In this document: piece by piece, positions 2,116 to 64,000 of the stretch
How positions within the stretch are numbered: position 1 is the stretch's first letter
How the letters are laid out: each line of letters begins with the position of its first letter
Assembly (NCBI GenBank): GCA_951406725.2
Contig: OX597821.1
Span: 107,074,001-107,138,000 of the forward strand
Source of the DNA: Octopus vulgaris
Taxonomy: Eukaryota
DNA: 64,000 nt
Reading direction: 5' to 3'
Translations under genes and position numbers: made by a program
Notes under the pieces: generated by a model
Told to the model about the DNA's origin: nothing
Database searches by the model: none
Seen by the model: only the letters and a program-made list of their open reading frames with translations

Positions 2116-3058
2116 CGATGTATTTAAACGAACTCCAATCCAAATAATGATTATCAAATACATCAAGTAAATAAATTCCGAAATAGTAACATAGATGTAT
2201 TCATAAAATTTAGTTTTCAAGGAATCATTTATTATTTTGTAAGTAGCAATGCAACATCCAATAATACAACCGAGTACGAGAAATCCCGAAAGCAACTGAA
2301 ATGATTCATTTACCAAATTCAGTATTCTACTCATAGTATCATGAGTGTTACATATTTCTTGAATTTCTTTATATTTCTTAAAGAAATACGAAGTGTCCGA
2401 TTGCTTTTCTTTTACATATATCTGAGCTTCGTTCTCTAATTTATTAAACTCATAAATCAGGGCTAAACTAAATGCACAGTTCATATAGTAGTCACATATA
2501 ACGTACGCAGATAATATACTGTAAAATACAATCTGTATTGTTAAAATTAGCATATGATACACATTGGTGATTTTCTCAAAAATTCTTAAAGAACTCTGAG
2601 AGCTCACAGTGAAATATGAAGAAACGAAAGTCATAAGACTAACTATAATAGGCAATAACGTAAATGTATAAAGTGATATACCGGAAAATATAAAACTAGA
2701 ATTATAGAATTTTCTATCATTTTCTTCCATTTTAAGTTTGGTGAATGCTTCGATTATTTCTTTGTGTTTAGATTTTCTGAAGGTTTTAATCAGACAATAA
2801 ATTGAAAGCCCCCCCCTGGATATACAATGCGTAAATATATCTAAATATTCCACTGCATGTGCTATGATCCATTTGTATTATATCAAAAATAGGTCTCGCA
2901 AGCAGATATATACAATAGACGATATAACAACCATAAAAACAGATTATGCGAGGCTTTAGTGATTTCAGTGTTGATAGGTTCATAACTGATATATGGAAAG
3001 TATTAATTTTCCGATAGAATTCCAGGAATTTATAGAAGCGTGTGTCCTTCAGTTCCAT
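2116..3058 (-). CDS. Unit A: GRL-like chemoreceptor first coding exon (TM1-TM6), with a +1 frameshift in a G8 run
   Basis: ATG at 3058 (MELKDTRFYK). ORFs 2786-3058 and 2092-2853 join into one paralogue if one base of the C8 run at 2809-2816 is removed. Ends RLNTS then GTAAGT. Length is 943 nt (3n+1). Confidence 0.75.
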
Positions 3059-6700: not shown

Positions 6701-7367
6701 ATACGTATATATAAGAACACTATATACATGTATACTCAAGGACATATACACACATTTGCGCATATATATATATGTATATATATATACGTGTGTGTGTGTG
6801 TTTGCGAGTGCGTATGTGCGTGTCCCTGTATGTATGTATGGTAATGTATACACATTCTTAGAAACAGCGTTTTTATGCATAAATATTAAGAACAACAACA
6901 ACAACTACAAGGACAAGATATGGCTAAATAAATATATCAGTAAGATACCTAACAGATAAAAGAATAAACTGTTAGAAACTGTAAAATAATCAGAAGAGCA
7001 TTTGCTAATTTAAAATGATGTCTTCTAAAATCTTGATGAAGCGAAATTTGTGTGGCTTTCGTAAGATATATCTCACGATTAATTGTAGCTAAGTCGCAAA
7101 ACAAAGAGCGAGAGAGGGTGAGTTAATGACGGGATCACAGAATGAGATTCGGATGTCTATGGAAAAATTGTCATAGTGGAAGAGAAGGAGGAATGCCTTT
7201 TATAAGATATTAGGTGACATTAAAAGAAAACGATGAAATTGGCGTAGCATAATCTTTTCACACATGGACGAATACGATAAGTGGACAATTTTTTTCATGT
7301 AATATGTACTATAAATATATTTTTAAAATGAGGTTGGAGAATAATATAAATTTATTATGTAACTTAC

Positions 7368-8318
7368 CGAATTATGTAAGCGAAGACCAATCCAAACCAT
7401 TCTCGTCAAATACGACAAATTCAAAAAATTCACCAAAATAATAGTAGGGTATTCATTGAATAGAATTTGAAATGAACCATTTATTATGAAGTAAGTCATA
7501 ACACAACATCCAGTAAGACTACCAAGTACGACAAATCCCGAAGTCAACTGATATGTTTCATTCACTAAATTCAATATTCTACTCAGAGTATCATGTGAGT
7601 TACATATTTCTGTAATCTCTTTATATTTCTTAAAGAAATACGAAGTGTCTGATTGCTTTTCGTTTACGTATTTCTGAGCCTCGTACGCTACTTTATTAAA
7701 CTCATAAAGCAATGCAGTCCCAACTGCAATATTCATATACCAATCAAACATCATGGACGTAAATGTTATACAATGAAATACAAAGTATATTATTAAAAGT
7801 ATTAAGAGAGGGTTGTTGGTAGTTTTTAATTGAATTGGTGCGGAACTCCAAGTATTCTCAATGAAAAACGGGAGAACCATGTTAAAAATATAGAGAAGAA
7901 TAAGAGGCAAAAATATCCCTACAAAAAGAGTAATAAAAGAAAACATTAAGTTATAATTATAGAATTTTTTATCGTTTTCTTCTACTGTAATTTTGGTGAA
8001 TAAATCGATGATTTGTTTATTCTTAGATTTTCTGAAGATTCTGATCAAACAGTAGAGTGAAAGCAAACCCTGTAAAAATATTGTGTAAATATGTGCCAAT
8101 ATTCTATCAGTTTGGATATGATCAATTTGTATAGCATCATAAATATATTTGATGGGGTTTACAATCAGATATGCGAAGTACACGATATAAAAAGCATAGA
8201 AGCAGAGTGTGCTAAATTTGAGAGACTTCAATGAGATGTTGTTAATAAATATCCTAAATATATTCATCTTCTCATAAATTTGCAATATTCTATAAAATCG
8301 TGTTTCTTTCAGTTCCAT
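7368..8318 (-). CDS. Unit B: intact GRL-like chemoreceptor first coding exon (317 codons, TM1-TM6)
   Basis: MELKETRFY...six hydrophobic segments...CNSHDTLSRILNLVNETYQ...WIGLRLHNS, then a phase-0 GTAAGT donor. The H..L....L.N..F/Y motif before TM5 is typical of GR/GRL proteins. Confidence 0.85.
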
Positions 8319-8600
8319 AATTTTTGCAATTGTGTATTTTCACAAGTTCTATGTAAAGAATAAAACACTCTGACGTAAAACACACAAGCTCTATTTCTAT
8401 GTATGATCTCTAGTTCAGTAAGTTTCCTTCTATAATGAGTTGCGAGTATTCCAGGGATTCGTTTGTCACGAAAGACCTGGCAATGTATCTGTTATATAGT
8501 GTCATCTGTATTGTTTGAATGTGGGGATTATTTTAAGTCTGTTTTATGGACTTAAGATATATAACAAATTAGATACAGATAACTAAGCTTCTTAAAACCC
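8319..8600 (-). promoter_or_regulatory. Unit B putative 5' UTR and promoter
   Basis: Minus-strand TATATAAC at ~8492-8499, with the GGGATTATTT and TAAGCTTCTTAA blocks shared with the other units. Confidence 0.55.
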
Positions 8601-19096: not shown

Positions 19097-20047
19097 CGAT
19101 TTATTTAAAAGAACCCCAATCCACACCATTCGGATCAACTGCATCGTGATCACCGAAGACACAAACATAGCGAAAACGTAATCAGAGAGTATAATTGTTA
19201 ATGAATCATTTATAATTACATAAGTAGCAATACAACATCCAGTAATACTATTTAATGCGATCAACCCTGAAGACAACTGAAATGATTCATTCAATAAATT
19301 CAGTGTTTTACTCAGAGTATCATGTGAGTTACATATTTCTGGAATCTCTTTATATTTCTTAAAGAAATACGAAGTATCTGAATGCTTTTCTTTTACGTAT
19401 CTCTCAGCCTCGCACGCTACTTTATTAAATTCATACTGCAGTGCAGTTCCAATTGCGAGATTGATATACCAATCAAATAGCATGCCCGTGAGTGCTATAC
19501 AATCAAATAAAACGTGGGTTAATGAAATAATTAAGTCAAGAAGTTTGTTGGTTTTGAAAATAGTTGTTGAGAAATTCCAAACAGTGTTAATGAAAAACGG
19601 GAGAACGTATACCATGGTATTGAGTATAATGGGCGGCAGCAATACAACTATAGAAAGTGATATAAAAGAAAATATTAAGTTATTGTTATAGAATTTTTCA
19701 TCGTCTTCTTTAATTGTAAGTTCGGTGAATGCTTCGAGTATTTCTTTGTCTTTAGATTTTTGGAAGAATTTGATCAGACAGTAGAGTGAGACCAAACATT
19801 GAAGAAATAATGCATACATATGTACAAATATTCTATCAGTTTCGCGATGATACGATTCTATTGTATAATACATATATATAATGGGGTTTGTAATCAGATA
19901 TACAGAATACAGGATGTAAAAGGCAGAGATACAGATATTTTTACATTTGAGAGATTTCAGTGATATGTTCATAAGTGATGTCTTAGAAATATTAATTTTC
20001 CCATAAAATTGTAGTAGTTTGTAGAATCGTGTTTCTTTTAGTTCCAT
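19097..20047 (-). CDS. Unit C: intact GRL-like chemoreceptor first coding exon (317 codons)
   Basis: ATG at 20047 (MELKETRFYK), open to WIGVLLNKS, then GTAAGT; 951 nt; paralogous to unit B. Confidence 0.85.
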
Positions 20048-22084: not shown

Positions 22085-22739
22085 TCAGCCCCTCAATCTC
22101 CCTAAATATATAGACGCGAACATTAAAAGTATAGTCGCAATTAGTTTAGTTTAGAAGAAAACGTTTGTAGCTACGGATAGGTATATATTTATAATTTACA
22201 TTCTGTTAATAATCTTTCACCTTCTGTTTCAGCTTCGTAACCTCCTGTCTTTCTTTTGTTTCTTCATTTCTCTCTATCACACCATCATTCTTCTCTCAGC
22301 CGCTCAATCTTTTGCATCACTTCCTCTCTTTCATCTCTTTCTCTATCACACCATATTTCTTCTCTCAGCCTCTCTATCTTCTTAAATATATAGACACTCT
22401 CTCACTCTCTCCTTATCTTTTCTCAGCCGCTCAATCTTTTGCATAACCTCCTCTCTTTCATTTCTTTCTCTCTCTGTCACTTCACTCCTCTCCCTCACGC
22501 CTCTTTCCTTGTCTCTTCACTTCTCCACTACTCTCTGTCACACCATCTTTCCTCTCTCAGCCTCTCAATTTTTTCTAGATGCGAACATTCTCCTCTCACT
22601 CTCTCCTACTCTCTTCTTATCTTCTCTCAGCTCTCAATCTCTCTAAATACATAGACACTTTTTTCTCTATTTCTTATCTACCCTCTATCACACTATTAAA
22701 TTTTAAATATAATTAGATAGATGAATAAATAAAATATCC

Positions 22740-25700
22740 AAAAATATCCAGAACCTGGAAGAGTAACGAATTGGCGTTGTTCCGGAGAGCCTGGCAATGC
22801 GCCGACGGCGATAATCCGAACAACATAATTACAGCTGCGCTGAAGAGCAGTGGATATACAAGGACAATAGCGCAGATAGAGCGAAAGAAGCAGGAGTTTA
22901 TATGCTCCTATGCACTCATAAGATCTCACATGGGCACGCTTGATGCCATCTTTGACAACGAACAAAGTAAAGATGGCAAGGTTGGAGGCACGGGTGCTGA
23001 TGAAAGATGTTACCCCCACTTGGTAGACACCGAGGACAACAACAGAGAAGATAATTCAAGTGAGAAACCTGCCCGGGAAGTAAATGCCAGTGCAAGTGCC
23101 CCTACCAGCACTAAAAGCCAAAACCATGGAGATGAAAAAGCCAAAAAGGAAGTAAAAGGAGGAAAAACTAAAAGAAAAACAAGAGATGAAACAGCCAAAG
23201 AAGGAAAAACTAAAACTCAAAGAGAACCAAAAGATGAAACAGCCAAGGATAGAAGCAAACCTGACTATCAATGTACCAAAAAGGATAGAAAGAGACAGCG
23301 CACACGGATGTGTAAATTCTACCTGAAAGGTGTCTGCTGGCATGGAGAGGAAGGTGCAGACTGCCGTTTTGTACACCAAAGACCCCGCCACATAAACATG
23401 AAACAGGTCAGAAACCAACTACCAAAAGGAAAAGGAATGGACCACGCCCCACCTGCTCCAAAACGGAGGTACGCAGATGTGGTGGGTGCTACAAAACGCC
23501 AACATGTTATTGAAAGGGCGGCATGTTATTGTGCATGGCACAAAAGATTGTACAGCAGCTAACCTGGCTCCATCAAACTCAATCTCGCAGATGGGACTAT
23601 CGACAATACACAAGACCGCCACAGCAAATAGACCCAAGGTTGACACCACCGGCAACAGCATACACATCACCTCGATGCTCCTACTGAACATCAGAGGACA
23701 GCTAACACTCAGTAAGGGGACAAAAATCCCGTTCTTGAGAGACTTTGTTGCATGAAATCAAGCCTTATGCATAGCACTTACGGAAACACACCTGAAACCG
23801 GACATAGCAGATGCGGAAATACACATACCACAGTGTGGTGTTGTACCACGGACCGACAGAAAAGAAAGGAGTCATGGAGGTGTTGCTATGTACATCTGCG
23901 AGGACCTCACACCCCAGGTCCTTTTGTCATTCTCAAATTCGGTGTGTGACACAGTAATTGTACATATAAGGCAACTTGGTGTAGATATATGTGTTACATA
24001 TCGCCCTCCAGATGCCCCAAGCCATGTAGGCAAGTTTGAAGACTGCATTATAAAAGTAGAAGTTCTAGTAACGTTAGAACAACACATAATTGTACTTCTT
24101 ATGAGAGACTTCAATCTACCCAATGTCAGATGGCCCGAGGGCCTTTCTCTCCCAGGAATGACATGATGTGAACGAGGACAGACGAGGTCCCTCCTGAACC
24201 TCATCAACACTCTGTACATGGAGCAAGTAATACTCCAACAAACCAGGGCAGGTAATATACTGAATCTCTTCTTCACAAATAATATGGATCTCATCCATAA
24301 TGTGAAAGTGACACCGACAATACTCTCGGATCACAACATGGTAGAGCTGACCATGTACTGTCCAAAGTAAAGCATGGACATGCAGCCTACAAGAAACTCT
24401 CAGAATCTTTTCAGCTTGAACTTCCATAAGGCAAACTGGAGACAAATTGAGAAAGAGATCCTCAAAAAAAACTGGCCTGAATGTCTCTTCTCGCCAGACA
24501 TCGACATGAAACTTCAACAATTCATGTCTGTAATGCAAGCCATATGCTACAAATGTGTCCCAGAGAGAAAGGCCACTGTACACAAGAACAAAATCCCCAT
24601 AGAGAGGAAAATTCTAATGAGACGGCGTACAAAGGTTTCAAATCGCCTAAACAAACGAATTGAAAGCAGTGAAAAGTCCCGCCTAAACATAAAACAGTTG
24701 GAAATTGAAAATTGTCTGCAACTCTCACTTGAAAAAGAAAAAGCAGACAAAGAAGCCTGGGCTATAGGCATCATAATATCTAACCCCAGAGCTTTCTACA
24801 GGTATGCCAAATAAACAGCTGTGGTGCACTGTAGGATAGGGCCACTCCTTGAAAAGGATTGCACTCTCACAGGAAATCCAATGAGAGTAAGTGAAATACT
24901 AAATGAGCAATTCAACAGTATTTCCCTCCACCCCTAGGGCATTTTCAAGTCAGCAATCCAACTGACTTCTTTACCACTGCAGATATAAAATCAGTGGCAG
25001 CGATGATTGATTACATCAATATAAAGGAAGACGATGTAATAAAGGCTATAGATGAAATGAAAACAAACTCAGCTACAGGCCCCGATGGATTCCCAGCAAT
25101 CCTTCTAAAAGTATGTAAGAGAGTCCTAGCAGGACCACTGCAGTTCCTCTTTCAGAGCTTCCTTGCAACTGGCAAACTTCCAAGAAAACTAAAGGACGGT
25201 AAAATATGCCCTATTCATAAACGAGGTAGCAGAGCGGAGGCCAAGAACTACAGACCTATCTCTCTGACCTCACACATCAGCAAGGTCATGGAACGAATAG
25301 TCAGAAGGAAACTAATTACCTTCGTTGAAGAAAATGACTTGCTGCCTGACACCCAACATGGTTTCCGACCAGGAAGAAGCTGCTTAACTCAGCTCCTACA
25401 ACACTATGACTGGGTGCTGAAACGACTACTCAACCACTCAAATGTGGAAGTCATATATCGCGACTTTGCAAAGGCCTTTCATAAAGTCGATCATGGTATG
25501 ATATGTCACAAACTGAATGATCCTGGCATAGTTGGAAAATTGGGAGAATGGCTTCATGACTTTCTGAAGGATAGAAGTCAGGTGGTAGTAGCCAATGAGG
25601 CAACCTCCATTAACACACAAATAGTGAGCGGTGTTCCGCAGGTTACTGTTTTGGGACCACTACTGTTCATGATGGCCCTCACAGACATGCCCTCAGCCAC

Positions 25701-26699
25701 GATCATAAGTTATGCAGATGATACAAAAGTTTCACAGGCAATACAGTACCCTGAAGACAATAAACACCTGCAATGTGAGCTGGACAAAATATACAAGTGG
25801 GCTGAAAAGAATAGCATGCAGTTCAATGCTGAAAAGTTTCAAGTTTTATGCTATCAGCATGCAAAGCTAAATGCAATACCCAATAAATACACTGGACCTT
25901 GATGGATTGCAATCCCAGAGGCACAATCGGTGCGAGACCTGGGTATTTACATGAGTGATGATGCAATCTTTCATGTGCATGTTGCTAAACTGGCAATGAA
26001 ATGTAGGCGGCTGACCGGATGGATTCTTAGAACCTTTAGAACAAGAGACCAGGAAACCATGATGGTCCTCTGGAGGACATTTGTCCTAAGCCACTTTGAC
26101 TATTGCTCTCAGCTATGGTCACCATCCAGTGTCAAGTTAATCACAGAACTTGAGGCGATCCAACGAAGCTACACGAAGAAGATAAACTCTGTGCAGCATA
26201 TAAGCTACTAGGAAATACTCAAGAGATTAAGACTCTATTCCTTAGAGCGTAGGCGAGAACGATATGGCATAAAATACATCAGGAAGATCCTAGAAGGACT
26301 TGTCCCAAACTTTGGCATCGAGAGTTACACAAATGCCAGAACTGGGCGCCACTGCATAGTGCCAAGGACTCCAAATTTGCCATCAAGATGTAGGACGAGT
26401 TATTGTGATAGCCTGGGTTTCCAGGACCCACATCTCTTCAATATCCTCCCGAAGAACCTGTGAGACCTGCATGGGGTGGATGCAGATGTCTTTAAAATAT
26501 CTCTTCTTGTCAGGTGTCCCAAATGAACCAACTTCACGGCATTAGGTGCAGATGAAAGCAGCTGCATCGAACTCTCTCATGCACCAAATGGCAGTTGCTA
26601 AAAATCATTCGTGAAGTAATATCATGTAGCAAACCCAAATGGCGGTGCCCCTGCATGGCCACAGCTTGTGAGCTGAAACTAGATAAAAATGAAAAATAA

Positions 26700-27271: not shown

Positions 27272-28219
27272 CGTTTTATTTAAACGAAGTCCAATCCACA
27301 TCATTCTGATCAAAAGCATCATGTACAACGAAGCCAGAAACGTAACGGAAAAGTAATCAGAGACTATTTTGTATGGATCATTGATAATTATATAAGTAGC
27401 AACACAACATACAGTAATACTAACGAGTACGATAAATCCTGAAGACAACTGGAATGATTCATTCAATAAATTCAGTATTTTACTCAGAGTATCATGTGAG
27501 TTACATATTTCTGGAATCTCTTTATATTTCTTAAAGAAATACGAAGTATTTGAATGCTTTTCTTTTACGTATTTCTCAGCCTCGCACGCTACTTTATTAA
27601 ACTCATACTGAAGTACAGTTCCAATTGCGACATTGATATACCAATCAGACATTAAGTACATTTGTGATATAAAATCAAATACAAACTGAGATAATGAAAT
27701 ACTTATGTCAAGAATGTTGCTGGTTTTGAAAAGAGGTGTTGAGGAATGCCAAACAGTGTTCATGAAAAACGGGAGAACGTGTTCCATGATATTGAATATA
27801 ATGGGCGGCAGCAATACAGCTATAGAAAGTGATGTAAAAGAAAATCTTAAGTTATTGTTATAGAATTTTTCATCGTCTTCTTCAGTTTTAAGTTCGGTAA
27901 ATGCTTTGAGTATTTCTTTGTCTTTAGATTTTCGGAAGAATTTGATCAGATAGTAGAGTGAGACCAAACACTGAAGAAATAATGCATACATATCTACAAA
28001 TATTCTATCAGTTTCGCGATGATACGATTCTATTGTATAATACATATATATAATGGGAATTGCAATCAGATATACAGAATACAGGATGTAAAAGGCAGAG
28101 ATACAGATATCTTTACATTTGAGAGATTTCCGTGATATGTTCATAAGTGATGTCTTAGAAATATTAATTTTCCCATAAAATTGTAGTAGTTTGTAGAATC
28201 GTGTTTCTTTTAGTTCCAT
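27272..28219 (-). CDS. Unit D: intact GRL-like chemoreceptor first coding exon (316 codons)
   Basis: ATG at 28219, open to WIGLRLNKT, then GTAAGT; 948 nt; close paralogue of unit C. Confidence 0.85.
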
Positions 28220-32130: not shown

Positions 32131-32901
<771 letters not shown>

Positions 32902-34406: not shown

Positions 34407-35860
34407 TTTCATTTCATTTCATCGAGTTTCAACTCACGAGCTGTGGCCATGCTGGGGCACCAGCATTCGGTGTTGCTACATGATCTTACTTCACGAAAGC
34501 TTTTTAGTAATTGACATTTGGTGCATGAGAGATGTTGATGCAGTTGCCCTCATCTGCACCTCCTACCGTAAAGTTGGTTCATCTGGGATACCTGACAGGA
34601 AGAGGTCCAGCTTTATTTTAAAGACATCTGCATGCACCCCATGCAGGTCTCTCAGGTCCTTCGAGAGGATATTGAAGAGCTTTGGACCTCTGAGCTGTGG
34701 ACCTCGCAGTATCTAGTCCTACATCTTGATAGCGAATTTGGAGTCCTTGGCACTATACAGTGGTGCCGTTCTAGTATTTGTGTAATTCTCGATGCCAAAG
34801 TTAAGGATAACTCCTTCCAGGATCTTCCAGATTTATATTATGGCATATCTTTCATGCCTACGCTCTAAAGAATAGAGTTTTTAATCTCTTGAATCTTTCC
34901 CAATAGCATATATGCTGCATAGAGGCTATCTTCTTCGTGCAGCTTCGTTGGATTGCCTCAGGTTCTGAGACTAATTTGACACTGGTTGGTGACCATAGCT
35001 GAGAGCAATAGTTAAAGTGGCTTAGGACAAGTGTCCACCAGAGGACCATCATGGTTTCCTGGTCTAGTGTTCTAAAAGCTCTAAGAATCCATCTGGACAT
35101 TGCCAATTTAGCATCATGCACATAAGGTTGCATCATTACACATGTAAATACCCAGGTCTCGCACTGATTGTGCCTCTGGGATTGCAATCCCTCCATGTCC
35201 AGTGTATTTATTGTTTATTGCATTTAGTTTTGCATGTTGATAGCATAACGCTTGAGACTTTTTAGCATTGAATTGCATGCTATTCTTTTCAGCCCACTTG
35301 TATATTTTGTCTAGCTCACATTGCAGATGCATAGTGTCTTCAGGGTTCTGTATTACCTGTGAAACGTTTGTATCATCTGCATAACCTGTGATCGTGGCTC
35401 TCTGTGTGGCTGAGGGTATGTCTGAGAGGGCCATTGTGAACAGTAGTGGTCCCAAAACAGTGTCCTGAGGAACACCGCTCACTATTTGCGTGTTATTGGA
35501 GGTGGCCCCATTGGCTACTACCACCTGCTGACTTCTATCCTTCAGAAAGTCATGACGCCATTCTCCCAATTTTCCAACTATGCCAAGATCACGCAGTTTG
35601 TGACATATTCCATGATCCACTTTATCACAGGCCTTTGCAAAGTCGAGATATATCACTTCCACCTTTGAGTGGTCGAGCAGTTGTTTCAGCACCCAGTCAT
35701 AGTTTTGTAGGAGCTGAGTTAGACAACTTCTTCCTGGTCGGAAACCATGTTGGGTGTCAGGCAGCAAGTCATTTTCTTCAAGGAAGGTGATTAGTTTCCT
35801 TGTGACTATTCGTTCCATGATCTTGCTGATGTGTGAGGTCAGGAGATAGGTCTGTAGTTC
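34407..35860 (-). mobile_element. 5'-truncated CR1-like LINE, same family as 22740-26703, opposite orientation
   Basis: RT fragment LTSHISKIMERIV...QHGFRPGRSC...YADD is nearly identical in protein to 24994-25902 and shares the same 3' tail. Confidence 0.92.
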
Positions 35861-36029
35861 TTGTTCAAAATTGCATAGACGGTCTTGAAACCACCTGATG
35901 AATGTCCATAGAAGTGACAAGAAACGATCGTAGTGGATATCTTAATTATATTTAATTTATATAAAAATTTTTATGTATTGGATTAAGTCTTTCTTTGTTT
36001 GATTTGCATAATAGTGGTTTTGTCTCTAA

Positions 36030-40095: not shown

Positions 40096-42100
40096 AGAAT
40101 ATAGTACAATACAACCCACTGAAGACACTTAAAAACTTATCCTCCTTAGTTCAAATACATGGCAAGGCCCTCACTAAACAGGAATTAGACTATCTAATTT
40201 TAAATACAGACCTAGTCTATCCTACGGATTACCTAAAATACACAAAATCTACATATTTGTAAAGTTTGCAAAGTTTCTCCATGCCTGTTCCTACTCCTAC
40301 TGACTTCAAACTGAGACCCATCATTGCTGGACCTGCTTGCGAAACCCACCGTTTGAGAAACTTTGTCGACATCTTATTCAAACCGTTTCTAAAATATGGG
40401 GGATGATTTAGACATGTTGAACGACCACCTGAAGACAATAAATGAAGGAACCCTGTTAGTATCATTCGATGTGGTGAATTTCTACACCAATTTCCCACAT
40501 GATTATGGTATAGAAGCGATCACATTCTGGTTAGAAGAATATCCAGAAGTGATCCCAGGGCGCATTAGCCACAGATTCATAATCGAAGCATTCAAATTCA
40601 TCCTACTGAACAACTATTTCATGTTCGATACAGTTTACTATCGACAAAAATGTGGAATTGCAATGGGAACCCGAGCTGCTCCAGTGATTGCGAACCTTGT
40701 TATAGGTTACATAGAGCTTCAAATATATCAATCATCACTACAAAAATATGGCAACTCATTTCATTGCTATTTAAAGGAGAACTGGAAGAGGTATTTGGAC
40801 GATTGCTTTAAACTTTGGAAATACAGCATGGACAAACTCCTCGATATCAAAATAATGCTCAACAATATTAATAGCAACATACAATTCACCATGGAGCACA
40901 GCAGTAAACAACTTCCTTTTCTTGGCATCATGATTAAAATAGTCAATAACCACATCGAAACAGATATCTATAAACACAGCTTCTAAACAATACCTATTAT
41001 TCAACTCATGCCACCCCAAACACATAAAAATTAATATCCCTTATAATCTAGCGAAAAGAATCTATACCATAGCATCGGACACCTATACTCGTGAACGAAG
41101 ACTCCTTGAACTTAGATCAATACTAATCAAACGATATTACTCAATATCATTAATAAATGATGACATTAAACGAGCTAAGGAAATAGATTTACGAACATTA
41201 AGGGAAGTCAACCGAAATCCTAAACCAGACTTAAAATCCTCTCATACATCTCCACACATAACCAATAAACAACGAATCCTTGAACATTATCATCCAAAAT
41301 ATTCTCATCCGCACAGGAGATAAAACAATGAACAAAATTTTAGGCTCACACAAAATTGTCAAGAGCAGAATGCAACCTAAATCATTGAAAAAATATTAAC
41401 CAGCGCAAGATTTTATCCATTAACAACAGAACCAAAAGTGAAAAAGTGTGGTCGACCTAACTGTGGTACATGCCCCCAACTTTTGGTGGGTTCCGAATTC
41501 CACTTTAAACAAGGTGAAATATTTCAGATCAAGTCAAATTTCACATGTGTCTCGGAAAACATTATCTATGCCATTACATGCATTGGCTATGGTAATAATT
41601 ATATTGGCGAAACAGGAATATTACTCCGTTGAAGAACCACTCTCCAAATTCCCCACCTCCAATACAGAGAGATACAGGTCAGTGAACACATAGAAAGGTG
41701 AGCTAGGAATCTTAATCCTAATTTCCTAATCTTCCCCTTCTATCAATGTACACAGAACACCTCAGTACAACAACAAATGAATAAAGAGGAAACTTTCATC
41801 AATAAATATCTTCCACAACCCAATATGATCACATAACATAATACAGAACACTACTGACCTTTCAGTTAATACTACTGACCCCCATATATCCCATACACCA
41901 TTCACATTACAGATCTATATCTACCCTAATTGCACCAAATCCAGAACTAATTACCTCCCTTACACATAATCGTTTTACTCAGGGACTAGTAGACGTGACA
42001 TCGTTCATTAATCAGTGTGCATTCAAAGCAATGATTAGCAAATACACGAAACCGGTATGCTTTTGAATCTCTTTAACAATTCACAATAATGACTTTTATT
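40096..42100 (+). mobile_element. Degenerate Penelope-like retroelement (RT plus GIY-YIG; Neptune-type Cys motif)
   Basis: LRPIIAGP, LVSFDVVNFYTNFPH, GIAMGT..APVIANL, WKRYLDDCF, LPFLGI; then KCGRPNCGTC...NIIYAITC...YIGETG. Confidence 0.9.
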
Positions 42101-42599: not shown

Positions 42600-45500
42600 T
42601 AAATAAAAATAATCAACAAAACAAACGAACAAAATAAAATTTAATAAAACATATCCACCAGAATGGCTAGCCACCAAAAATCCAACAAAAACCGGTCTGA
42701 TAATGAAATCGACGTTCTTATCAACACATGGCATTGCCTTACCCAAACAGAAAACATCGGTGCTTCGTGTCTGAACGAAATTGCTAAACGAACAGTTCAC
42801 CTTTTGCAAACTCGATCTGAACTGCAGATACAAAATAAATTAAAGCAAATCGAAGTTGCTTTTAAATTAATAAACACTTCGATAAACTGAGATGTGTTTT
42901 CTCTTCGAAAGCATCACCGGCGCAACAACAACAGCAACAACAACAACAACCTCAACAACAACAGTATGAACCACTCCTTGATTCATCTACAATGGCCGAT
43001 TTGCTAAACGAAACGATTGACCCCCCCCCCCCAGTCACCAGGGTAACACAGCAGGAAGCACCACCCCTTCTTTTCACTGCCCCAGCAGCTCAATCATGAT
43101 CACTGTCAACATCATCTCCTCTGCTTACTACTACTAGTACTACACCCACTATCAATCCACAAACATCTTTGTCTACCGCTATCTCATGGAATCCACCTCC
43201 TCAATCATCATCAGTCAACATCTCTTCTGCCTGCTACTACTACTACAACTACTACTAATGCTATCTCAAGGAGTCTACCTCCTACAGGTCACAAAGGTCG
43301 CCAAAACCTCAACAAACTATCATCTACACCTCTCACAACTCACACACGCACCTACACACCAACTCGAAACCCCATCATTTGCCGATATTCTCTTCGCCAT
43401 AAATTATGCACTGATAGAGACTGCAAATCTACCCATTTACCTGGAACAAAACGCTCTATCCCCACAAACTACAACAGCCACCACCATAATACATACTCTA
43501 TTACAACACCACTACAGCCACCAATATATCAAACAAGGAATCCCCAAATCTGCCGCTATTTCCAGCGAGACAGATTGTGTTTGCACAGGGATTGCCCCTT
43601 TACCCATCTCCCGGGGACCCGTCGGACAAATGATAATATAAATAAAAATAAAAGCAAAAAAACCTACGACTCATATAGAAATAACCACTCATATAAAAAT
43701 AGCCACAACCACAGTCACCTACAGTTCCCTAGACAGGAAACTCTTTTTTAGCTATAATGAATCTAGCAAAAGAACTGGAAAAAATATCCGAGCTATAACC
43801 CACCACCATCCACCACTATCACCCCACTGCACATGCCATTAAAAAGCAAACAAATAAGCAAAACACCAAAACAATTAAAACCATCCACTCTCGCCTCAAC
43901 ATTTTTGCTTGACGCCCAAGGCATCAGCCCTACCACCAATACTCAAAAATGGAAAATAAAATTCCTGGAGGACTGGGTTGATGCCCATCCAAACCACACC
44001 CCTTTCTTCGTCCTCACCGAAACCCATCTTAGTAACCTCCACTTGGAAGCCGAGGTAAAAGTTAAAAATTTCAAAGCCATTCGTGCTGATCGTGCTGGCA
44101 GAAGAAAGGGTGGGACTGCCATTTATGTACATGATTCTTTCTCAACAGAGGCTATGAACATATTTTCCAATGGATACTGCGAAGCATTCGCTGTATTCAG
44201 TCAAACCAACAACTTAATAGTAGTTGGGCTCTACATACCACCCCAAACGCCCCTACCATGCTTCAAGGAATGCCTCAAAAACATAAAGTGTTTCATTCAG
44301 CAGTATCAATCTGACAACATCTTAATGATGGGGGACTTCAATCTCCCTGGAGTTGACTGGTCTACAAACAGTCTGCCGCCAGGTTCTTCTGTCTCAACCC
44401 CTGACAGCGAGACAGTGGAATCGCTTCATGATTTCATGGATGATTTCTTCCTGTCCCAACTGGTGCTCGAACCAACGAGATGTCACATAAACGTCCTAGA
44501 CGTAATTTTCAGCAATCACACTGACACTATCCACAATATTGCAGTGGAGAAAACTCTACTCTCTGATCATGACATGGTTCTCCGTGATCTGAGATTTCAC
44601 CGGCCAAAATGCAAAAGGAACGTCATCCCTCCTATCCATCCATTTGACTCTATGGATTTCCACAACGCAAACTGGGAAGCGATCAGTAATGATCTTGCAC
44701 AAGTCGATTGGTCCTTCACGCACACATACACACCCACTAACATCAAAAACATCAAAAAGTCCTGGCAGTCATTTGTAGAAACCATTACGAACATATGTGC
44801 AAAACACACCCCATTAAGATCTGCAAACAAATCTAAGTGCAGAATCCCTAGAAATAGAAAAACTCTCATCAGGAAAATTAAAAGAATTAACAAAAAAATC
44901 AACATAGGCGCAGGAGTGGATGTGTGGTAATTAGCTTGTTTACCAACCACATGTTTCCGGGTTCAGTCCCACTGCGTGGCACCTTGGGCAAGTATCTTCT
45001 ACTATAGCCTCGGGGCGACCAAAGCCTTGTGAGTGGATTTGGTAGATGGAAACTGAAAGAAGCCCATCGTATATCTGTATATATATATATGTGTGTGTGT
45101 TTGTGTTTGTGTGTCTGTGTTTGTCCCCCTAGCATTGCTTGACAACCGATGCTGATGTGTTTACGTCCTCGTCACTTAACGGTTCGGCAAAACAGACCGA
45201 TAGAATAAGTACTGGGCTTACAAAGAATAAGTGCCGGGATCGAGTTGCTCGATTAAAGGCGGTGCTCCAGCATGGCCGCAGTCAAATGACTGAAACGAGT
45301 AAAAGAGAGTAAAGAGTAAGCTGAAATACTGTCAACAGCAACACACCAACCTGACTGCCATCACGTCACTAGAGATTAAAAAACATAACCTCCAAAATAA
45401 CATGATGTTTATCATCAATAGTCAGAGAAGAGCTGAAGAGGCCTGGACCATTGAGAAGATCAAACTTAATCCCAAAGTGTTCTTCTCATTTGCAAAAAAA

Positions 45501-47340
45501 CACAAAGTTACTGGCTCTACTGTTGGCCCTCTGATTGATGAAAATGGTACTCTTCAAGACAATGCTAAAACCATGGGAGAGATGTTGCAGAAACAATACT
45601 GCTCTGTTTTCAGCAATCCTGATATAGCTGATCAGGGCTCTATCAGTGATGTTACACCCCAATACACTTTATCGGACATAACCTTTGGCGCTCCTGATGT
45701 CTTAGCAGCAATAAAGGAAATGAAGCATAATTCAACAGTAGGTCTCGATAGGTTCCCTGCTTGTGTCTTGAAGATGTGTCAATACCAACTTGCACCCCCT
45801 CTAGCCTATCTGTGGCGGATGCTGGATGCTGGATATATACCAGAAAACCTTCTATCCCAGTCTGTTGTCCCAGTTTTCAAAAAAGGAGACAAATCCCTTG
45901 CCGTGAATTACCGTCCAATCTCACTCACCTCTCATATCATTAAGGTATTTGAGAGAGTGGTGAGATCGCGTATGACTCACTTCCTTCAGAGTCATAATAT
46001 GCTGAACTCCAACCAGCATGGATTCCATAATGGAAGGGATTGCCTGACGCAGCTACTGCATCACTTCGATGACATTTTGAGAGCCTTGGAAGAGGGTTCC
46101 AAAACTGATGTTATCTACCTTGATTTCAGCAAGCCCTTTCAGAGGGTTGATCATAAGATCCTTTTGAGAAAGCTGTCCAATATTGGTGTCACTGGAAAGC
46201 TACTGCAGTGGATCAAGGGCTTCCTGTCAAACAGAACCCAACATGTTATAGTTGAAGGGGTCAATTCCAGCCCAGCCAAAGTCAGTAGTAGTGTCCCACA
46301 AGGCACTGTATTGGACCCACTTCTCTTCATCATCTACATTAATGACATCACTGACATCATCAAACACAGTAACATCAGAATCTTCGCTGATGATTCCAAG
46401 CTCCAAAAGGTCATCAATGGCGTGGATGACTGGATAAACCTTCAGTCAGACCTACTGGCTGTTGTCCAATGGGCGGAAAAGAACAACATGTTGCTAAACG
46501 AAGACAAATTCGAATTGATCCACTTTGGAAGGGAGGACGCTCTGAAACTCCCATACTCCCTTCCTTCTGGTGAAATTCTCATGGCGTCTGACAACATCAG
46601 AGACTTTGGAGTAACTGTGGACAACAACATAAGCTGGGCTACACATATAAGCAGCAAAGTCGACATGGCCCGCAGAATGTGTTCCTGGATTCTCAGAACC
46701 TTCCAGTCGAGAGATTCCCGAACCATTATCCTTCTCTTCTCCATATTTGCCCGACCTCACCTTGAATACTGCTGTCCTCTGTGGTCTCCCTACACGAAAC
46801 GGAATATTATGAAAGTTGAAGTTCTCCAAAGGTCAATCACGAAAAAGATAGATGGCATGTCAGACCTTGACTACTGGGGTCGACTGGAAAAGCTGAAACT
46901 GTATTCACTCTAACGACGCCGTGAACGCTACATTATCTGTATGATGTGGAAAATATTCCATCAGCACTGTCCAAATGATGTTGGTATCACCTTCAAAATA
47001 CATCCAAGACTTATACCCCGTGCCATCCGTCCACAGCAAAAATCTAAATCGCATCTCATAACAACAATACGGCACAATTAGTTCACCTCAATTGGACCCG
47101 CTCTCTTCAACATTACACCAGGACACCTCAAAACAGAAACTGACCACACAAAATTCAAGAAGTATTTGGACAAATTCCTTCAAACAGTCCCGGATAAACC
47201 ACCCACACCTGATATGTCTCCGCAAACAATAACTCTCTGCTCGAATGGGCCTTGGTGCCCAAATCCTGAATTGAAAGACTTCGCCAGGTGGTGCTATTAA
47301 GTTAGATATGACCTGGGGCAATACTGGCCAAAACCTTTCT
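42600..47340 (+). mobile_element. Near full-length CR1-like LINE (second family), ORF2 split by a SINE
   Basis: APE 43833-44905 (VLTETHL, KGGTAIYV, MGDFNLP, SDHDMV); RT 45402-46913 (NYRPISLTS, QHGF, YLDFSK, VPQGTVL.PLLF, FADD). The 5' boundary is approximate. Confidence 0.92.
44906..45319 (+). mobile_element. tRNA-derived SINE (family 3) inserted into LINE ORF2
   Basis: GGCGCAGGAGTGG.TGTGTGGTAA...CCGGGTTCAGTCCC head and AAAAGAGT tail; the LINE protein KKIN resumes as KLKYCQ after it. Confidence 0.85.
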
Positions 47341-49789: not shown

Positions 49790-52080
49790 TTTTTTTTTCT
49801 TCTTTCAAATTTGCTTCCATTTCTTGCCGAGTGTCTTCCCGACTCCTAGGGCAAAGAAACTCATAGTACACATTGGTAGGCCATTAAACTAAACTCAATA
49901 GTTCGTTCATTTTTTTTTTAAGGTAAATTAAAATATATGGGTAGTAATAGTTCTCACATCGACAATGCTCTTCTCAATACGTGTGATGTACCAGTTAAGA
50001 CAATCTTTTGCACTTCTTGCAGGGATGGTAAGCCAGGGATCATTCTCATATAATTTCCGGTTCCCTTTTTGATCATTCCTAATGCTCCTACGATCACTGG
50101 TATTGTAACCGCCTTGAGATGCCACATTTTCTCAATTTCAATGCGCAGGTCTTTATATTTTTTGAGCTTGTCAAACTCTTTCGCCGAGATATTATGATCA
50201 AAAGGGATGCTCATGTAGATCAATAAGCAAACTTTATTGTTTTGGTCTTTCACAACAATATCTGGTTTATTGGCTTTGATGTTCGGTCTGTATGTACTGA
50301 AAAGTCCCACAGATTCGTTACATTTTCTTCTTCAGTTACAGCTTCAGAGGTTTCTCCTCCCACCTATCAGCCAATTGCTCGTGCGCTTTTTTCGTTGCCA
50401 TTATTTTCACCTTCTTTGCAACAATAGTTGCTGTACTTCCCTCGGGTTGTTCAGTTTGGGTATACTGCACGTGATCAATAGCAAATATTTTGCTTTCCTT
50501 TATGATAGAATGAAGCTTCTTTCGTCTCTCATGATTTTCCACGAGCTTTAGCATCCAGTCATACGTTATTTCAAGATATTTGGCCAGTCCAATTGTGGTT
50601 GTTTTGTAAGCTAGTTCAAATTGGATCAGGCCTCGACCTTCTTGGACTCTGGGAAGGTAAAGGCGATCTACGTCTGCCTTTGGGTGGTGCATCCTATTAC
50701 AACTCAGCAGCTTGCGTATTTTCCTATCTATATTCTTTATTTCACTCATATTCCAGTTCAACACATTGTAGCTATAGGTAACAACTGGAACTGCTAAGGA
50801 ATTTATAGCTAACACCTGCATTTAGTTCAGATTTCAGGACTGCACGAACTCTCCTATAACATTCCTTCCTGATCTTCTCTTTCATGCTTGCATGCTGAAT
50901 ACCAGAGCCTTCATTTATCCCTATGTATGTTTGTTCTTGCTCAAGCTCTCTTATGACTGTGTCAACATCCAACACGACTGAATTTGTGGTCTTCACTTTC
51001 CCTTTCTGGAAAGTGGCCTTGGCACACTTCTCAAGCCCAAACAGTGCATAATAGGCCTTCACGTTCATTATCGTTTTACCATAGAGTTTAAAGTCATCCA
51101 TATAAAATAGATGGCTTATTTTTTTATTGGCAATTTTATACCCATACCTTGTTCTGTTTAATTCACTTGTAAGGGGTATTAGGCTATGCAGAATATTAAA
51201 GGTGAAAGTGAGTCACCTTGAAAAAATTCCACAGTTGATGTTTATATTTTCTGAGGCAAGTACTCCATTAGAGTGGTATAATTGGAGATTCGTATTCCAC
51301 AACGACATATAGTGCTTCAGGAAGTTTGAAATCACAGAGGAAATTTTGAAGATGTCCAGCGATCTCAAGATCCATGGATGCGGTATACTGTCGAAGGCCT
51401 TTTTATAGTCAATCCATGCGGAGCTGAGATTTCTGCGCTTGTTGTGACAGTTCTCAACAATCATACGATTAATTAGCAGTTGATCTTTGCATCCGTATGA
51501 GCCTCGGCGGCACCCTTTTTGTTCAATGGGGAAAATATCGTTCTTCTCCATGAATGCATATGTTTTCTCCGCCAGGATAGATGTTAGGATGTTATATGTG
51601 GTGGATAGACAGGTTATAGGCCGATAGTTTTTTGGAAGGTTGGTTTCGTTATTCTTTGGGAGCAGGTAAGTAATACCACTTGCTAACCATTCAGGTGTTT
51701 TCTTTGGGTCTCTCATAATTCCATTGAGCAGCTGATCTAGCTTACCGTGTGCGCATGGGAGCGATGCGAGCCAGAAATTCGGCACCCTATCATTACCGGG
51801 GGATTTCCAATTATGGGCCTTCGTGAGTGCCTTTCTTAGGTCTGCTATTGTGATGTCTTCCCATGCTTGTTGTTGTAAATTTTGGTAGGATCCTTCAGTT
51901 TGTATAATCCAGTCTGCATTTATGTTGTACGTCTTCTTGTCACTCCAAAACCTTTTCCAAAAGTTTTGAACTTCTTCCATGGGAGGGGTGGTCTTTAACG
52001 GTTACTTTCTCCTTCCCTAGTTCTCTGTAGAATTTTTTGGCATTGGATGTGAACAGCTTATTTTGCTTGTAAGACCTGTA
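49790..52080 (-). mobile_element. R4/Dong-like LINE remnant (RT plus REL endonuclease, internal deletion near 50330)
   Basis: NWKSPGND, NYRPITCL, EQKGC, WIDYKKAFDS, LFYMDD, MHHPKADVDRLYLPR, KPDIVV, IPVIVGALG. Confidence 0.9.
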
Positions 52081-52775: not shown

Positions 52776-53889
52776 CGATTTATTTAAACGAACTCCAATC
52801 CACATCGTTATTAAAAGAATCTTGTTGAACGAAGCCACATATATAATGGAAGTGAGTTCCAGCAATGTATTTTGAAATGAAGAATTTATAATTATATAAG
52901 TAGTAACACAACATCCAGTAATACTAATGAGTACGATCAATCCTGAATAAAACTGATCTGATTCATTTACTAAATTCAGTGTTTTACTCAGAGTATTATG
53001 TGAGTTACATATTTCTGGAATCTCTTTATATTCCTTAAAGAAATACGAATTATTTGAATGCTTTTCTTTTACGTATCTCTCAGCCTCGCTCGCTACCTTA
53101 TTAAACTCATACTGCAGTGCAGTTCCAATTGCCATATTGATATACCAAGCAAACGGTATGTACGTATGTGATGTAAAATCAAATACAATGAGAATTAACG
53201 AAATAATTAAGTCAATAGATTTGCTACTGTTTGTTGTGGAATTCGAAACAGACTTCATGAGAAACGAGGGAACGTAGTACATAATATCGAATATAATAGG
53301 CGGCAGTAATGTCACTATAGAAAGTGATATAAAAGAAAATATTAAGTTATTGTTTTAGAAATTTTCATCGCCTTCTTCAATTGTAAGTTTGGTGAATACT
53401 TCGAGTATTTCTTTGTCTTTAGATTTACTGAAGAATTTGATCAGACCGTAGATTGATATCAAACACAGAAGAAATAGTGCATAAATATATACAATTATAC
53501 GATCAGTTGTTAAGCTCTGGTATGGGTGACAAAGACAGACACACAAGTACATACAAATACATACATACATACATACATACATACATACATACATACATAC
53601 ATACATACATACATACATGCATACATATATATATATAACACTGAAAATATATTGCACTAATATATACATATATGTCATGAGTTTCAATATGATACGCTTC
53701 TATTATATCGTAAATATATATAATGGGAGCTGTAATCAGATTTATAGAATACAGTGTATAAAAGGCAGAGATACAGATATTTTTACATTTGAGAGATTTC
53801 AGTGATATGTTCATAAGTGATATCTTACAAATATTAATTTTCCCATAAGATTGTAGTATTTTATAGAATCGTGTTTCTTTTAGTTCCAT
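52776..53889 (-). pseudogene. Unit F: GRL-like exon pseudogene (insertion, nonsense mutation, promoter lost)
   Basis: ATG at 53889; ~170-nt SINE/microsatellite insertion at ~53509-53679; TAA at 53355 where paralogues have TAT; donor LNKS|GTAAGT is intact. Confidence 0.85.
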
Positions 53890-54010
53890 ACTTTTTGTAA
53901 TAAAATATCTCTCACAACTTCTATTTAGAGAGTTAAACACGTTGAAATTAAAGACAGATGCCTTATTTCTGTACAAGTTATCTAATTCTTCAATTTTGCT
54001 TTAATAATAA

Positions 54011-54509
54011 GAATCTCTTTATATTCCTTAAAGAAATACGAAGTATTTGAATGCTTTTCTTTTACGTATCTCTCAGCCTCGCTCGCTACTTTATTAAACT
54101 CATACTGCAGTGCACTCCCAATTTCCATATTGATATACCAATCATAGAGTATGCACGTAAATAATATAAAACCAAATAAAATGGAAAATTAATGATATTA
54201 TAAATTCAAGAGTTTTTCTGGTATTTAAATAATTTTTTGAGGATTTCCGAACGTTGTACATCAAAACGGGAGAAAGTATACTATGATATTGAGTATAATA
54301 GGCGGCAGCAACATCACTATAGAAAGAGATATAAAAGAAAATATTAAGCTATTGTTATAGAATTTTTCATCGTCTTCTTTAATTGTAAGTTCGGTGAATG
54401 CTTCGTGTATTCTTTGTCTTTAGATTTACTGAAGAATTTGATCAGACCGTAGATTGATATCAAACATAGAAGAAATAGTACATAAATATATAGAATTATA
54501 CGATCAGTT
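54011..54509 (-). pseudogene. Unit G: internal fragment of a GRL-like exon (TM2 to the loop after TM4)
   Basis: Homologous to unit F from TDRI..YIY to YFFKEYKEI; both ends missing; same SINE junction as F. Confidence 0.8.
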
Positions 54510-54725
54510 GTTAACTTCTGGTATGGGTGACAAAGACAGACTCACAAATACATACATACATATATATATATATAAATGAATATTTTCGACAGGCTTCTTT
54601 AAGTTTTCCTCTACCAAGCACACTGACAAGGGTTTTGACCGCCCAAAGCAATGTTAGAAGACACGTGCCAAACGAAAGCGAAACCGTGCGGTTGGGAAGC
54701 AAGCTTCTTACCAGCAAGACAGTTC

Positions 54726-59196: not shown

Positions 59197-60143
59197 CGAT
59201 TTATTTAAACGGACTCCAATCTTCATCGTTGTGATCAGAAGAATCACGTTCAAAGAAGCCACAAACATAAAGGAATAGTAATAAGAGAGTATAATTTTGT
59301 ATGAATTATTTATAATTATATAAGTAGCAACACAACATCCAGTAATACTAATGAGTACGATAAATCCCGAACACAACGGAAATGATGCATTTGCTAAATT
59401 CAGTGTTTTACTCAGAGTATCATGTGAGTTACATATTTCTGGAATCTCTTTATATTTCTTAAAGAAATACGAAGTATTTGAATGCTTTTCTTTTACGTAT
59501 TTCTCGGCCTCACTCTCTACTTTATTAAACTCATACTGCAGTGCAGTCCCAATTGCCATATTGATATACCAATCATAGAGTAAGAACGTAAAAAATATGC
59601 AATCAAATACAATGAAAATTAATGAAATAATAAATTCAAGAGTTTTGATGCTGCTTAAATATTTTGTTGAGGAATTCCAAACAGAGCTCATGAGAATAAT
59701 GAATACGATTTTCATGAGAGCGAATAAAATAGGCGGCAGCAATACAACTATAGAAAGTGATATAAAAGAAAATATTATGTTATTGTTATAGAATTTTTCA
59801 TCGTCTTTTTCAATTTTAAGTACGGTAAATGTTTCGAGTATTTCTTTGTCTTTAGATTTTCGGAAGAATTTGATCAGACAGTAGAGTGAAAGCAAACACT
59901 GAAAAAATAGTGTATAAATAAATACAAATCTTTCATGAGATTTATGAAGCAATCCTATTATAACAAACATAGTTATAATGGGGATTGTAGTCAGATATGC
60001 AGGATACAGGTTATAAAAGGCAGAAATACAGACATTTTTACATTTGAGAGATTTCAGTAATATGTTCACAAGTAATATCTTAGAAATATTAATTTTCCCA
60101 TAAATTGTAGTAATTTATAGAATCATTTTTCTTTTAATTCCAT
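59197..60143 (-). pseudogene. Unit H: GRL-like exon with N-terminal stop and -1 frameshift; the last 291 codons and donor are intact
   Basis: ATG GAA TTA AAA GAA AAA TGA (CGA in most paralogues); one T lost in TTT TAT near 60102; 947 nt; open from 60069 to LNKS|GTAAGT. Confidence 0.8.
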
Positions 60144-63199: not shown

Positions 63200-64000
63200 C
63201 GATTTATTTAAACGGACTCCAATCTGCATCGTTGTGATCAGAAGAATCACGTTCAAAGAAGCCACAAACATAATGGAAACGTAATAAGTGAGTATAATTT
63301 TGTATGAATGATTTATAATTATATACGTAGCAACACAGCATCCAGTAATACTAATGAGTACGATAAGTCCCGAACACAATTGAAATGATTCATTTACTAA
63401 ATTCAGTGATTTACTCAGAGTATCATGTGAGTTACATATTTCTGGAATCTCTTTATATTTCTTAAAGAAATACGAAGTATTTGAATGCTTTTCTTTTACG
63501 TATCTCTCAGCCTCGCTCGCTACTTTATTAAACTCATACTGCAGTGCAGTTCCAATTGCCATATTGATATACCAATCATAGAATATGCACGTAAATAATA
63601 TACATTCAAATAAAGTGCAAATTAATGAAATAGTAAATTCAAGAGCTTCAATGCTGCTTAAATATTTTGTTGAGTAATTCCAAATAAAGTTCATGATAAC
63701 GATATTCATCAGAGCGAGTAAAATTGGTGGCAGCAATACAACTATAGAAATTGATATAAAAGAAAATATTATGTTATTGTTATAGAATTTTTCATCGTCT
63801 TTTTCAATTTTAAGTTCGGTAAATGCTTCGAGTATTTCTTTGTCTTTAGATTTTCGGAAGAATTTGATCAGACAGTAGAGTGAAGGCAAACACTTAAAAA
63901 ATAGTGTATAAATAAATACAAATCTTTCATGAGATTTATGAAACAATTCTATTATAGTATACATAGATATAATGAGGTTTGTAATCAGAAATACAGGTTA
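63200..64000 (-). pseudogene. Unit I: GRL-like exon running off the window; probable 7-nt deletion near 63990
   Basis: Open from 63997 to LNKS|GTAAGT. Reads AACCTGTAT-T-TCTGATT where unit H has AACCTGTAT-CCTGCATA-TCTGACT, implying a frameshift relative to the N-terminus. Confidence 0.65.

Follow-up and report, generated by a model that had tools for sequence, protein, structure and literature searches.

A candidate alternative first coding exon of a compound gustatory-receptor-like gene in an exon array of Octopus vulgaris

Compound receptor genes in which many long 5' exons share a single set of 3' exons are known from insects. In Tribolium castaneum, the gene Gr214 is described as combining 30 long 5' exons with a common set of three 3' exons (PMC6307266), and the gustatory receptor (GR) genes Gr39a, Gr28b and Gr23a of Drosophila have a layout of the same kind. 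GR-like proteins of animals (GRLs; 7TMIC) are known from molluscs (PMC7746228), and the criteria given for them comprise size, topology, loop lengths, a TM7 motif and 3' introns (PMC7746228, PMC9998090). Cephalopod chemosensation has been discussed via chemotactile receptors (CRs), GPCRs and ionotropic receptors (PMC11682238), with 26 CRs described in O. bimaculoides (PMC9068888, PMC11526382). Vertebrate clustered protocadherins also splice variable first exons to common final exons, although the proteins are unrelated; cephalopod protocadherins are described as not using variable first exons (PMC9068888), and since the octopus GRL locus presented here has such exons, the octopus appears to use the scheme elsewhere.

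The window analysed here is a stretch of 64,000 nt from assembly GCA_951406725.2, spanning C8:107,074,001-107,138,000, where C8 is contig OX597821.1. On balance, we favour the reading that the open reading frame (ORF) at 7368-8318 of this window is one of the alternative first coding exons in a compound, shared-tail GR-like (7TMIC) gene of the octopus that serves chemical sensing. The layout is like that of Gr214 and the three Drosophila genes, but the octopus cassette has 19 intact and 16 broken first exons spread over 265 kb, and the layout recurs in several sub-loci, including recent duplications of whole exon-plus-cassette units. The predicted product resembles other animal GRLs in length, in having seven helices with the N-terminus inside, in its long inner loops, and in its TM7 motif and 3' introns, although the octopus motif ends in QT. 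The CRs are likewise octopus-expanded, clustered candidate sensory ion channels; however, they are Cys-loop pentamers that derive from acetylcholine receptors, with whole genes encoding them, and we saw no link in fold or sequence between them and the octopus GRLs. The words 'gustatory' and 'GRL' are absent from the main text of the cephalopod chromosome paper (PMC9068888), and a literature search that covered few subscription journals found neither an octopus GRL expansion nor molluscan shared tails described. The shared-tail layout is known from insects and GRLs are known from molluscs, but a compound shared-tail GRL locus in an octopus appears to be new.

The first-exon copies touching the window, with the donor of the exon under study, are as follows.

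7368..8318, minus strand: intact first coding exon, 951 nt, encoding TM1-TM6 (317 aa), from the ATG at 8318 to the donor
7362..7367, minus strand: phase-0 splice donor GTAAGT, reading TCG/GTAAGT, which would open the predicted ~107-kb intron
19097..20047, minus strand: intact alternative first exon, 317 aa, 55.5% identity to 7368-8318
27272..28219, minus strand: intact alternative first exon, 316 aa, 54% identity to 7368-8318
2116..3058, minus strand: broken first-exon copy, donor kept, frameshift near the N-terminus
32248..32901, minus strand: broken copy with a stop; a microsatellite ends it about two-thirds along
52776..53889, minus strand: broken copy, donor kept, with a microsatellite insertion and a stop
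53991..54541, minus strand: degraded partial copy
59197..60114, minus strand: broken copy, donor kept, stop and frameshift just after the start, otherwise open (306 aa)
63200..64000, minus strand: copy with a single in-frame stop, extending beyond the window to C8:107138138

An earlier note on this DNA had placed a 317-aa ORF on the minus strand, from an ATG at 8318 to 7368, and the ORF is there. It is part of a gene and not a whole gene, encoding TM1-6 only; the note's treatment of this and the neighbouring ORFs as whole proteins or genes has to be abandoned, as they are better read as alternative first exons with a common distant TM7 cassette. The six hydrophobic segments claimed for the protein were located as Kyte-Doolittle peaks (1.38–2.64) at residues 35-53, 77-95, 124-142, 171-189, 261-279 and 293-311, and the motif said to follow TM4 in a polar loop, CNSHDTLSRILNLVNETYQ, occupies residues 239-257. 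The N-terminus is polar and the window ORF contains no signal-peptide-like stretch, in agreement with the lack of a signal peptide claimed earlier. Two further motifs stand in part: the TY said to end TM5 is present at residues 275-276 but is not the GR signature, which sits in TM7b, encoded by an exon outside the window; and TM6 does close at a phase-0 donor, but where WIG.RLN.S had been proposed this copy reads WIGLRLHNS. The proteins of the window are 98–100% identical to Octopus sinensis models.

Only three of the nine copies touching the window are intact (7368-8318, 19097-20047 and 27272-28219). A search of the 2.8-Gb genome itself, in which the best candidates were scored, returned 74 matches, every one of them within the interval 106.38-107.24 Mb of C8, and the donor lies at the same codon boundary (GT or GC) in 47 of 47 near-full-length single-frame copies, with CG/GTAAGT in 27 of the 47; given this clustering on one contig and the fixed donor boundary, the ORF is not a chance occurrence. 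The GC donor (AAT/GCAAGT) occurs in the intact first exon C8:106545289-106546299 (plus strand), the other 46 having GT, and P0031, the O. bimaculoides counterpart of that exon, is joined to a tail. Across the cluster of ~0.9 Mb at least 46 first exons are intact from ATG to donor, compared to 15 E3 exons (the second of three tail exons described below); these counts are lower bounds, as the regions examined were C8:106.34-106.57 and 106.70-107.328 Mb, leaving out C8:106.57-106.70 Mb. The plus strand carries groups of 7, 4, 2 and 3 intact first exons, each ahead of one cassette.

In a FastTree phylogeny the window exon groups with copy 107068815, ten younger copies and one Logan protein (support 1.0). 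Genome matches, copy counts and this tree bear out the expansion in octopus proposed in the earlier note; its lineage-specific status, in the sense of octopus-only, is not established, because intermediate profile matches could be from other cephalopods. Among 92 profile matches, those named at E<1e-16 are from Octopus, and two distant ones, from Littorina and Saccostrea, match the family profile at E=9e-8 and E=4e-6 respectively. The space between the window exons (22729-25902, 35114-35941, 40393-41323, 43047-46913 and 49954-52001) holds what we take to be LINE-like remains, with endonuclease- and reverse-transcriptase-like frames, and long microsatellites also occupy these gaps.

No TM7 exons were found inside the window by blastn of intron against intron or by tblastn. 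The nearest tail lies downstream of the exon, outside the window, 107,336 nt from its donor to E2:

C8:106974032-106973964, minus strand: E2, 69 nt, phase 0, nearest tail to the window exon
C8:106973055-106972966, minus strand: E3, 90 nt, phase 0, same cassette
C8:106971234-106971178, minus strand: E4, 57 nt, phase 0, same cassette
Window 7368 to E2, minus strand: predicted exon-1/E2 junction ...CATAATTCG/GTTCACAGC... of the putative splice

This cassette encodes a 71-aa tail, with AG/GT exon boundaries at codon boundaries, and when the four exons are joined in a script the product is 388 aa, in frame, with one terminal stop and seven hydrophobic peaks. The array above it, up to C8:107,239,728, is free of N gaps and contains 35 copies of the first exon, of which 19 are intact and the other 16 broken or partial; the pieces listed number 36, because a microsatellite divides one copy into two. 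No minus-strand tail exon was detected from C8:106,974,100 to 107,240,000 by tblastn, hmmsearch --max or nhmmer --max. Splice-bounded scans for E3 gave scores of at least 29.7 for 15 true exons compared to a best of 2.3 among 814 array candidates, and for E2, with a broad profile, at least 15.1 for 12 true exons compared to a best of -1.1 among 341. The margin was thin with a divergent-only E2 profile (3.8–10.8 for true exons compared to -4.5 in the array), and E4 separated less sharply (14 true exons at 32.9 or more compared to 20.1 in the array). Even cassettes with first exons as little as ~20–25% identical to the query are recovered by these scans. The layout is thus one of tandem long 5' exons and one set of three 3' exons, with no tail exon between them. 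In the cassette at C8:106452000, RefSeq isoforms of O. sinensis and O. bimaculoides (P0004, P0005, P0008) use an inner E2 acceptor that deletes 14 residues between TM6 and S7a, and a matching CAG is present in the 106974032 cassette.

Predicted gene models suggest exon choice for nearer copies. The O. sinensis locus LOC118764608 has three RefSeq predicted models, X1, X2 and X3, with three different first exons and an identical 71-aa tail; their first exons are 99.1% identical to C8:107014093, 100% to C8:107007697 and 98.6% to C8:106995960, respectively, the latter two over 70 aa. Models X2 and X3 are truncated 5', a sign that they may rest on partial transcript evidence. These three exons, the nearest to the cassette, are the only ones among the 19 intact first exons of the array that appear in named models; the other 16 intact exons all lie over 39 kb from the cassette, and among the proteins retrieved none of them is joined to the tail. 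At the sister locus LOC118764607, X1 and X2 are built on copy 106378782 and X3 and X4 on copy 106390099, with one tail, and copy 106378782 lies 72 kb from its cassette, beyond six intact copies. In O. bimaculoides, the predicted models of LOC106880719 place two kinds of first exon on a single tail.

Four sequencing runs were compared with the cassette; those behind contigs X6 and X7 are presumed to be RNA. Contig X6 joins E2, E3 and E4 at the predicted GT-AG sites and ends 15 nt short of the exon-1 junction; contig X7 joins E3 to E4 but carries the E2 of the sister cassette; run X3 covers the cassette introns and is DNA-like; and run X12 shows no cassette joint. Neither the proteins retrieved nor these four runs include a model or contig that joins the window exon to the tail, and a search of sequencing runs with the window exon returned no RNA run among the matches listed. 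Two proteins, P0041 and P0056, are 100% identical to two array exons over their first 43–46 residues and then continue into unrelated sequence; these are probably predictor artefacts.

The product of the window exon almost certainly belongs to the 7TMIC/GRL superfamily. The Pfam comparison suggested in the earlier note did return a match of the window ORF to 7tm_7 (PF08395), but a weak one (E=0.0098; 15.7 bits, below the 26.6-bit cut-off); 7tm_7 matches at E≤0.1 were found in 4 of 42 aligned members, the best at E=6.7e-5. A genome-wide PF08395 search gave no matches, but its control was also silent. Databases already assign PF08395 to three octopus isoforms, and one O. bimaculoides fragment is named 'Gustatory receptor'. 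A strict insect GR assignment was rejected, as the cut-off is not reached.

The fold is more informative. The full-length paralogue P0002 (RefSeq XP_036361421.1; 389 aa) is 39% identical to the window product over TM1-6, has no 7tm_7 match, and continues for 71 residues beyond TM1-6, ending TYILVVIQTKPL, in a tail identical to the cassette product. AlphaFold2 with a 107-sequence alignment models P0002, rather than the spliced product of the window exon itself, with pLDDT 89.1 and pTM 0.87 (a single-sequence model, pLDDT 42.7, was set aside) as six long helices followed by S7a, a beta-hairpin and S7b, an arrangement described for GRs (PMC12635824). Foldseek with this model gave 17 matches at E≤0.001, and all 16 of those listed are OR, Orco or GR; GPCRs appear only at E≥0.52 (TM 0.13–0.17). 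In VIA-align, among 48,161 chains, eight OR/GR chains scored Z 21.8–26.7 (rmsd 3.8–4.5, 313–372 residues aligned) compared to 8.2 for the next, so that the proposed structural comparison with Orco and GRs succeeds over the whole chain; the solved structures alike in fold are Orco, MhOR5, AgamOR28, DmGr43a, DmGr64a and BmGr9. Identity to these insect receptors is only 8–14%, and a ligand is therefore not transferable from them. The top ESM Atlas clusters are also GRs (0.96; TM up to 0.78), while a profile search of PDB sequences found only Gr43a (E=0.17–0.18), ranked below two ribosomal chance matches.

Other characters agree with membership. Counts of K+R (N-terminus 7, IL1 8, IL2 7; outer loops 2, 1 and 0), together with the whole-chain match to Orco, support on computational grounds the intracellular N-terminus that the note had expected, and the inner loops are 30 and 54 residues long compared to 16, 18 and 11 for the outer ones. 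The 388-aa script splice falls within the expected size of ~350–500 aa with seven TM segments, whereas the window ORF alone has six. The TM7 motif, TYILVVIQT, matches 3 of 4 positions of (T/S)Yhhhhh(Q/K/E)(F/L/M), the hydrophobic gate F/L/M being T; this motif is described as diagnostic but not definitive, members diverging at some or all positions (PMC7746228). Three phase-0 3' introns are present, judged by phase and not by alignment to insect introns, and two of the tail junctions are visible in contig X6. Fold, ESM Atlas, TM7 motif and introns together uphold the GR-like membership claimed in the earlier note, as do the polar N-terminus, the all-helical seven-TM model and the poor GPCR scores its exclusion of Cys-loop receptors and GPCRs. 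A chemotactile (Cys-loop) receptor was rejected because there is no signal peptide and the plan of beta-sandwich ectodomain and four TM segments is not found; a rhodopsin-type GPCR was rejected on its inverse topology and on Foldseek E≥0.52.

Median pairwise dN/dS among 20 array copies is 0.65 (190 non-independent pairs, 27 of them >1; pairwise counts throughout), and all 19 pairs involving the window exon are below 1 (0.40–0.84). With region borders set by hand from the helices of the P0002 model, the comparison of the window exon with 19097-20047 gives 0.39 for the cytosolic/anchor region (p=0.0015), 0.40 for the inner TM region (p=0.003) and 1.56 for the outer face (p=0.12). Among young copies, four disjoint pairs yield 0.80 overall (p=0.13), with the youngest clade near 1, and by region 0.48 (cytosolic/anchor, p=0.003), 0.70 (inner TM) and 1.46 (outer face, p=0.18). 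Non-synonymous change differs between outer and cytosolic regions (p=4e-15 to 7e-6) and synonymous change does not (p>0.3). The excess above 1 on the outer face is not significant (p=0.08–0.18), so that it is explained equally well by relaxed constraint and by positive selection; the regional values nevertheless indicate that constraint persists on the parts of the window exon involved in subunit assembly and is much looser on those where GRs bind ligand. It has retained its ATG, frame and donor across a dS of ~0.42 from its nearest relatives.

Upstream of the exon we noted one candidate element:

8585..8594, minus strand: TAAGAAGCTT, candidate promoter element, 276 nt upstream of the ATG

This 10-mer lies 250–466 nt upstream in 13 of the 46 intact first exons and occurs 21 times across the fetched region; as it is shared by descent, it is weak evidence for a promoter. 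Around 300 nt of upstream DNA has been co-duplicated with the first exons, and the sister exons do not all retain an acceptor AG ahead of the ATG, a putative one lying ~30 nt before the window ATG. From this upstream sequence (the co-duplicated DNA, the 10-mer and the lack of an invariant acceptor) we infer that each first exon may have a separate promoter. Dscam-like splicing from one common promoter, though it may still occur, is not supported, because the putative acceptor varies among sisters.

We propose that transcription probably begins from a promoter immediately ahead of the window exon, and that the phase-0 donor of this exon would splice over ~107 kb to the three shared exons at C8:106.974-106.971 Mb, skipping eight intact and four broken sister exons. 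This splice, which RefSeq models contain for three nearer sister exons and which we predict for the window exon, is in our judgement very likely. The predicted product is a 388-aa seven-helix subunit with its N-terminus inside, in which TM1-6 would supply an isoform-specific, outward-facing ligand pocket and the shared S7a-hairpin-S7b would line the pore identically in every isoform and supply some of the anchor. Since S7b is reported to line the pore and S7a to contribute to the anchor (PMC12635824), the isoforms would have a common pore and differ in the S1-S6 pocket. By analogy with solved GRs, the subunits may form tetrameric channels with ligand-gated cation channel activity, and the fast-changing outer face would point to detection of external chemicals. 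A chemosensory role for the family appears likely.

The same family and the same shared-tail splicing could instead serve development, or internal, light or redox sensing, rather than the sensing of external chemicals. NvecGrl1, a cnidarian GRL, is reported to act in body patterning (PMC5850775), chemoreception roles of GRLs outside insects have been called speculative (PMC7067487), and the octopus pore motif ends in QT and not QF. We nonetheless consider this unlikely, as the birth and death of dozens of copies together with divergence of the outer face is the pattern of tuning receptors, unlike that of single-copy developmental genes. It is less probable still that the distal copies, the window exon included, are stranded, decaying duplicates too far from the cassette to splice, with only a few proximal exons in use. 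The broken state of 16 of the 35 array copies, the restriction of models to the three nearest intact exons and a dN/dS near 1 in the young clade would all be expected in that case, but they must be set against the retention of ATG, frame and donor in the window exon, the purifying selection on its anchor side, and the sister array, in which the most distal exon, at 72 kb, is one that RefSeq joins to the tail.

Unspliced expression, yielding six-helix proteins that lack a pore helix and might for instance modulate other subunits, would account for frames that continue past the donor and for Logan contigs that give read-through products (P0003, P0006, P0007). Such contigs may, however, be DNA or pre-mRNA, read-through lengths in the array vary from 6 to 119 aa, and all 47 copies retain the donor; we regard this explanation as very improbable. 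Hardly credible is a private set of TM7 exons for each copy, too divergent to detect or missing from the assembly, or a GPCR or transporter: tail exons are indeed short (57–90 nt) and the E4 scan less sharp (32.9 compared to 20.1), but the scans recovered cassettes of highly divergent first exons in a gap-free stretch, and Foldseek ranks no GPCR better than E=0.52 (TM 0.13).

The locus contributes at least 46 intact candidates for receptor isoforms, exceeding the number of O. bimaculoides CRs, and carries the shared-tail GR design, known from insects, into a mollusc. More tentatively, the octopus may possess a second, hitherto undescribed chemosensory ion-channel family of at least 46 GR-like isoforms, organised in the manner of vertebrate clustered protocadherins, in which each sensory cell chooses among first exons encoding the ligand pocket and splices them to one invariant pore; isoforms with identical pore and anchor ends could then mix into heterotetramers. 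Such a family would be largely invisible in gene sets, since gene prediction recovers only a few of the first exons belonging to each cassette. The common tail and exon-specific probes provide targets for asking whether non-arthropod GRLs are chemoreceptors.

Several further features of the cluster were noted. Between C8:106.80 and 106.97 Mb, a unit of ~2 first exons plus cassette has been duplicated repeatedly and recently; the tails are near-identical, many first exons are broken, E2 is frameshifted at 106953230, and E3 is undetectable in the set at C8:106804962. An intact divergent first exon at C8:106755497 (plus strand), sister to the 107.25-Mb group, has no tail exon downstream on its own strand before the opposite-strand array, and was possibly stranded by rearrangement. 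The plus-strand array C8:107250612-107283987 comprises five divergent first-exon copies (107.250-107.276 Mb; two of the five counted without a stop check) followed by one cassette, whose last exon reads SYAILAYQT. Finally, P0060 (Saccostrea), P0048 (Littorina) and P0068 are models of 778–813 aa with two GRL-like units, and P0060 and P0048 have a single tail despite the two units; these may be mis-joined shared-tail loci, hinting at a wider molluscan layout.
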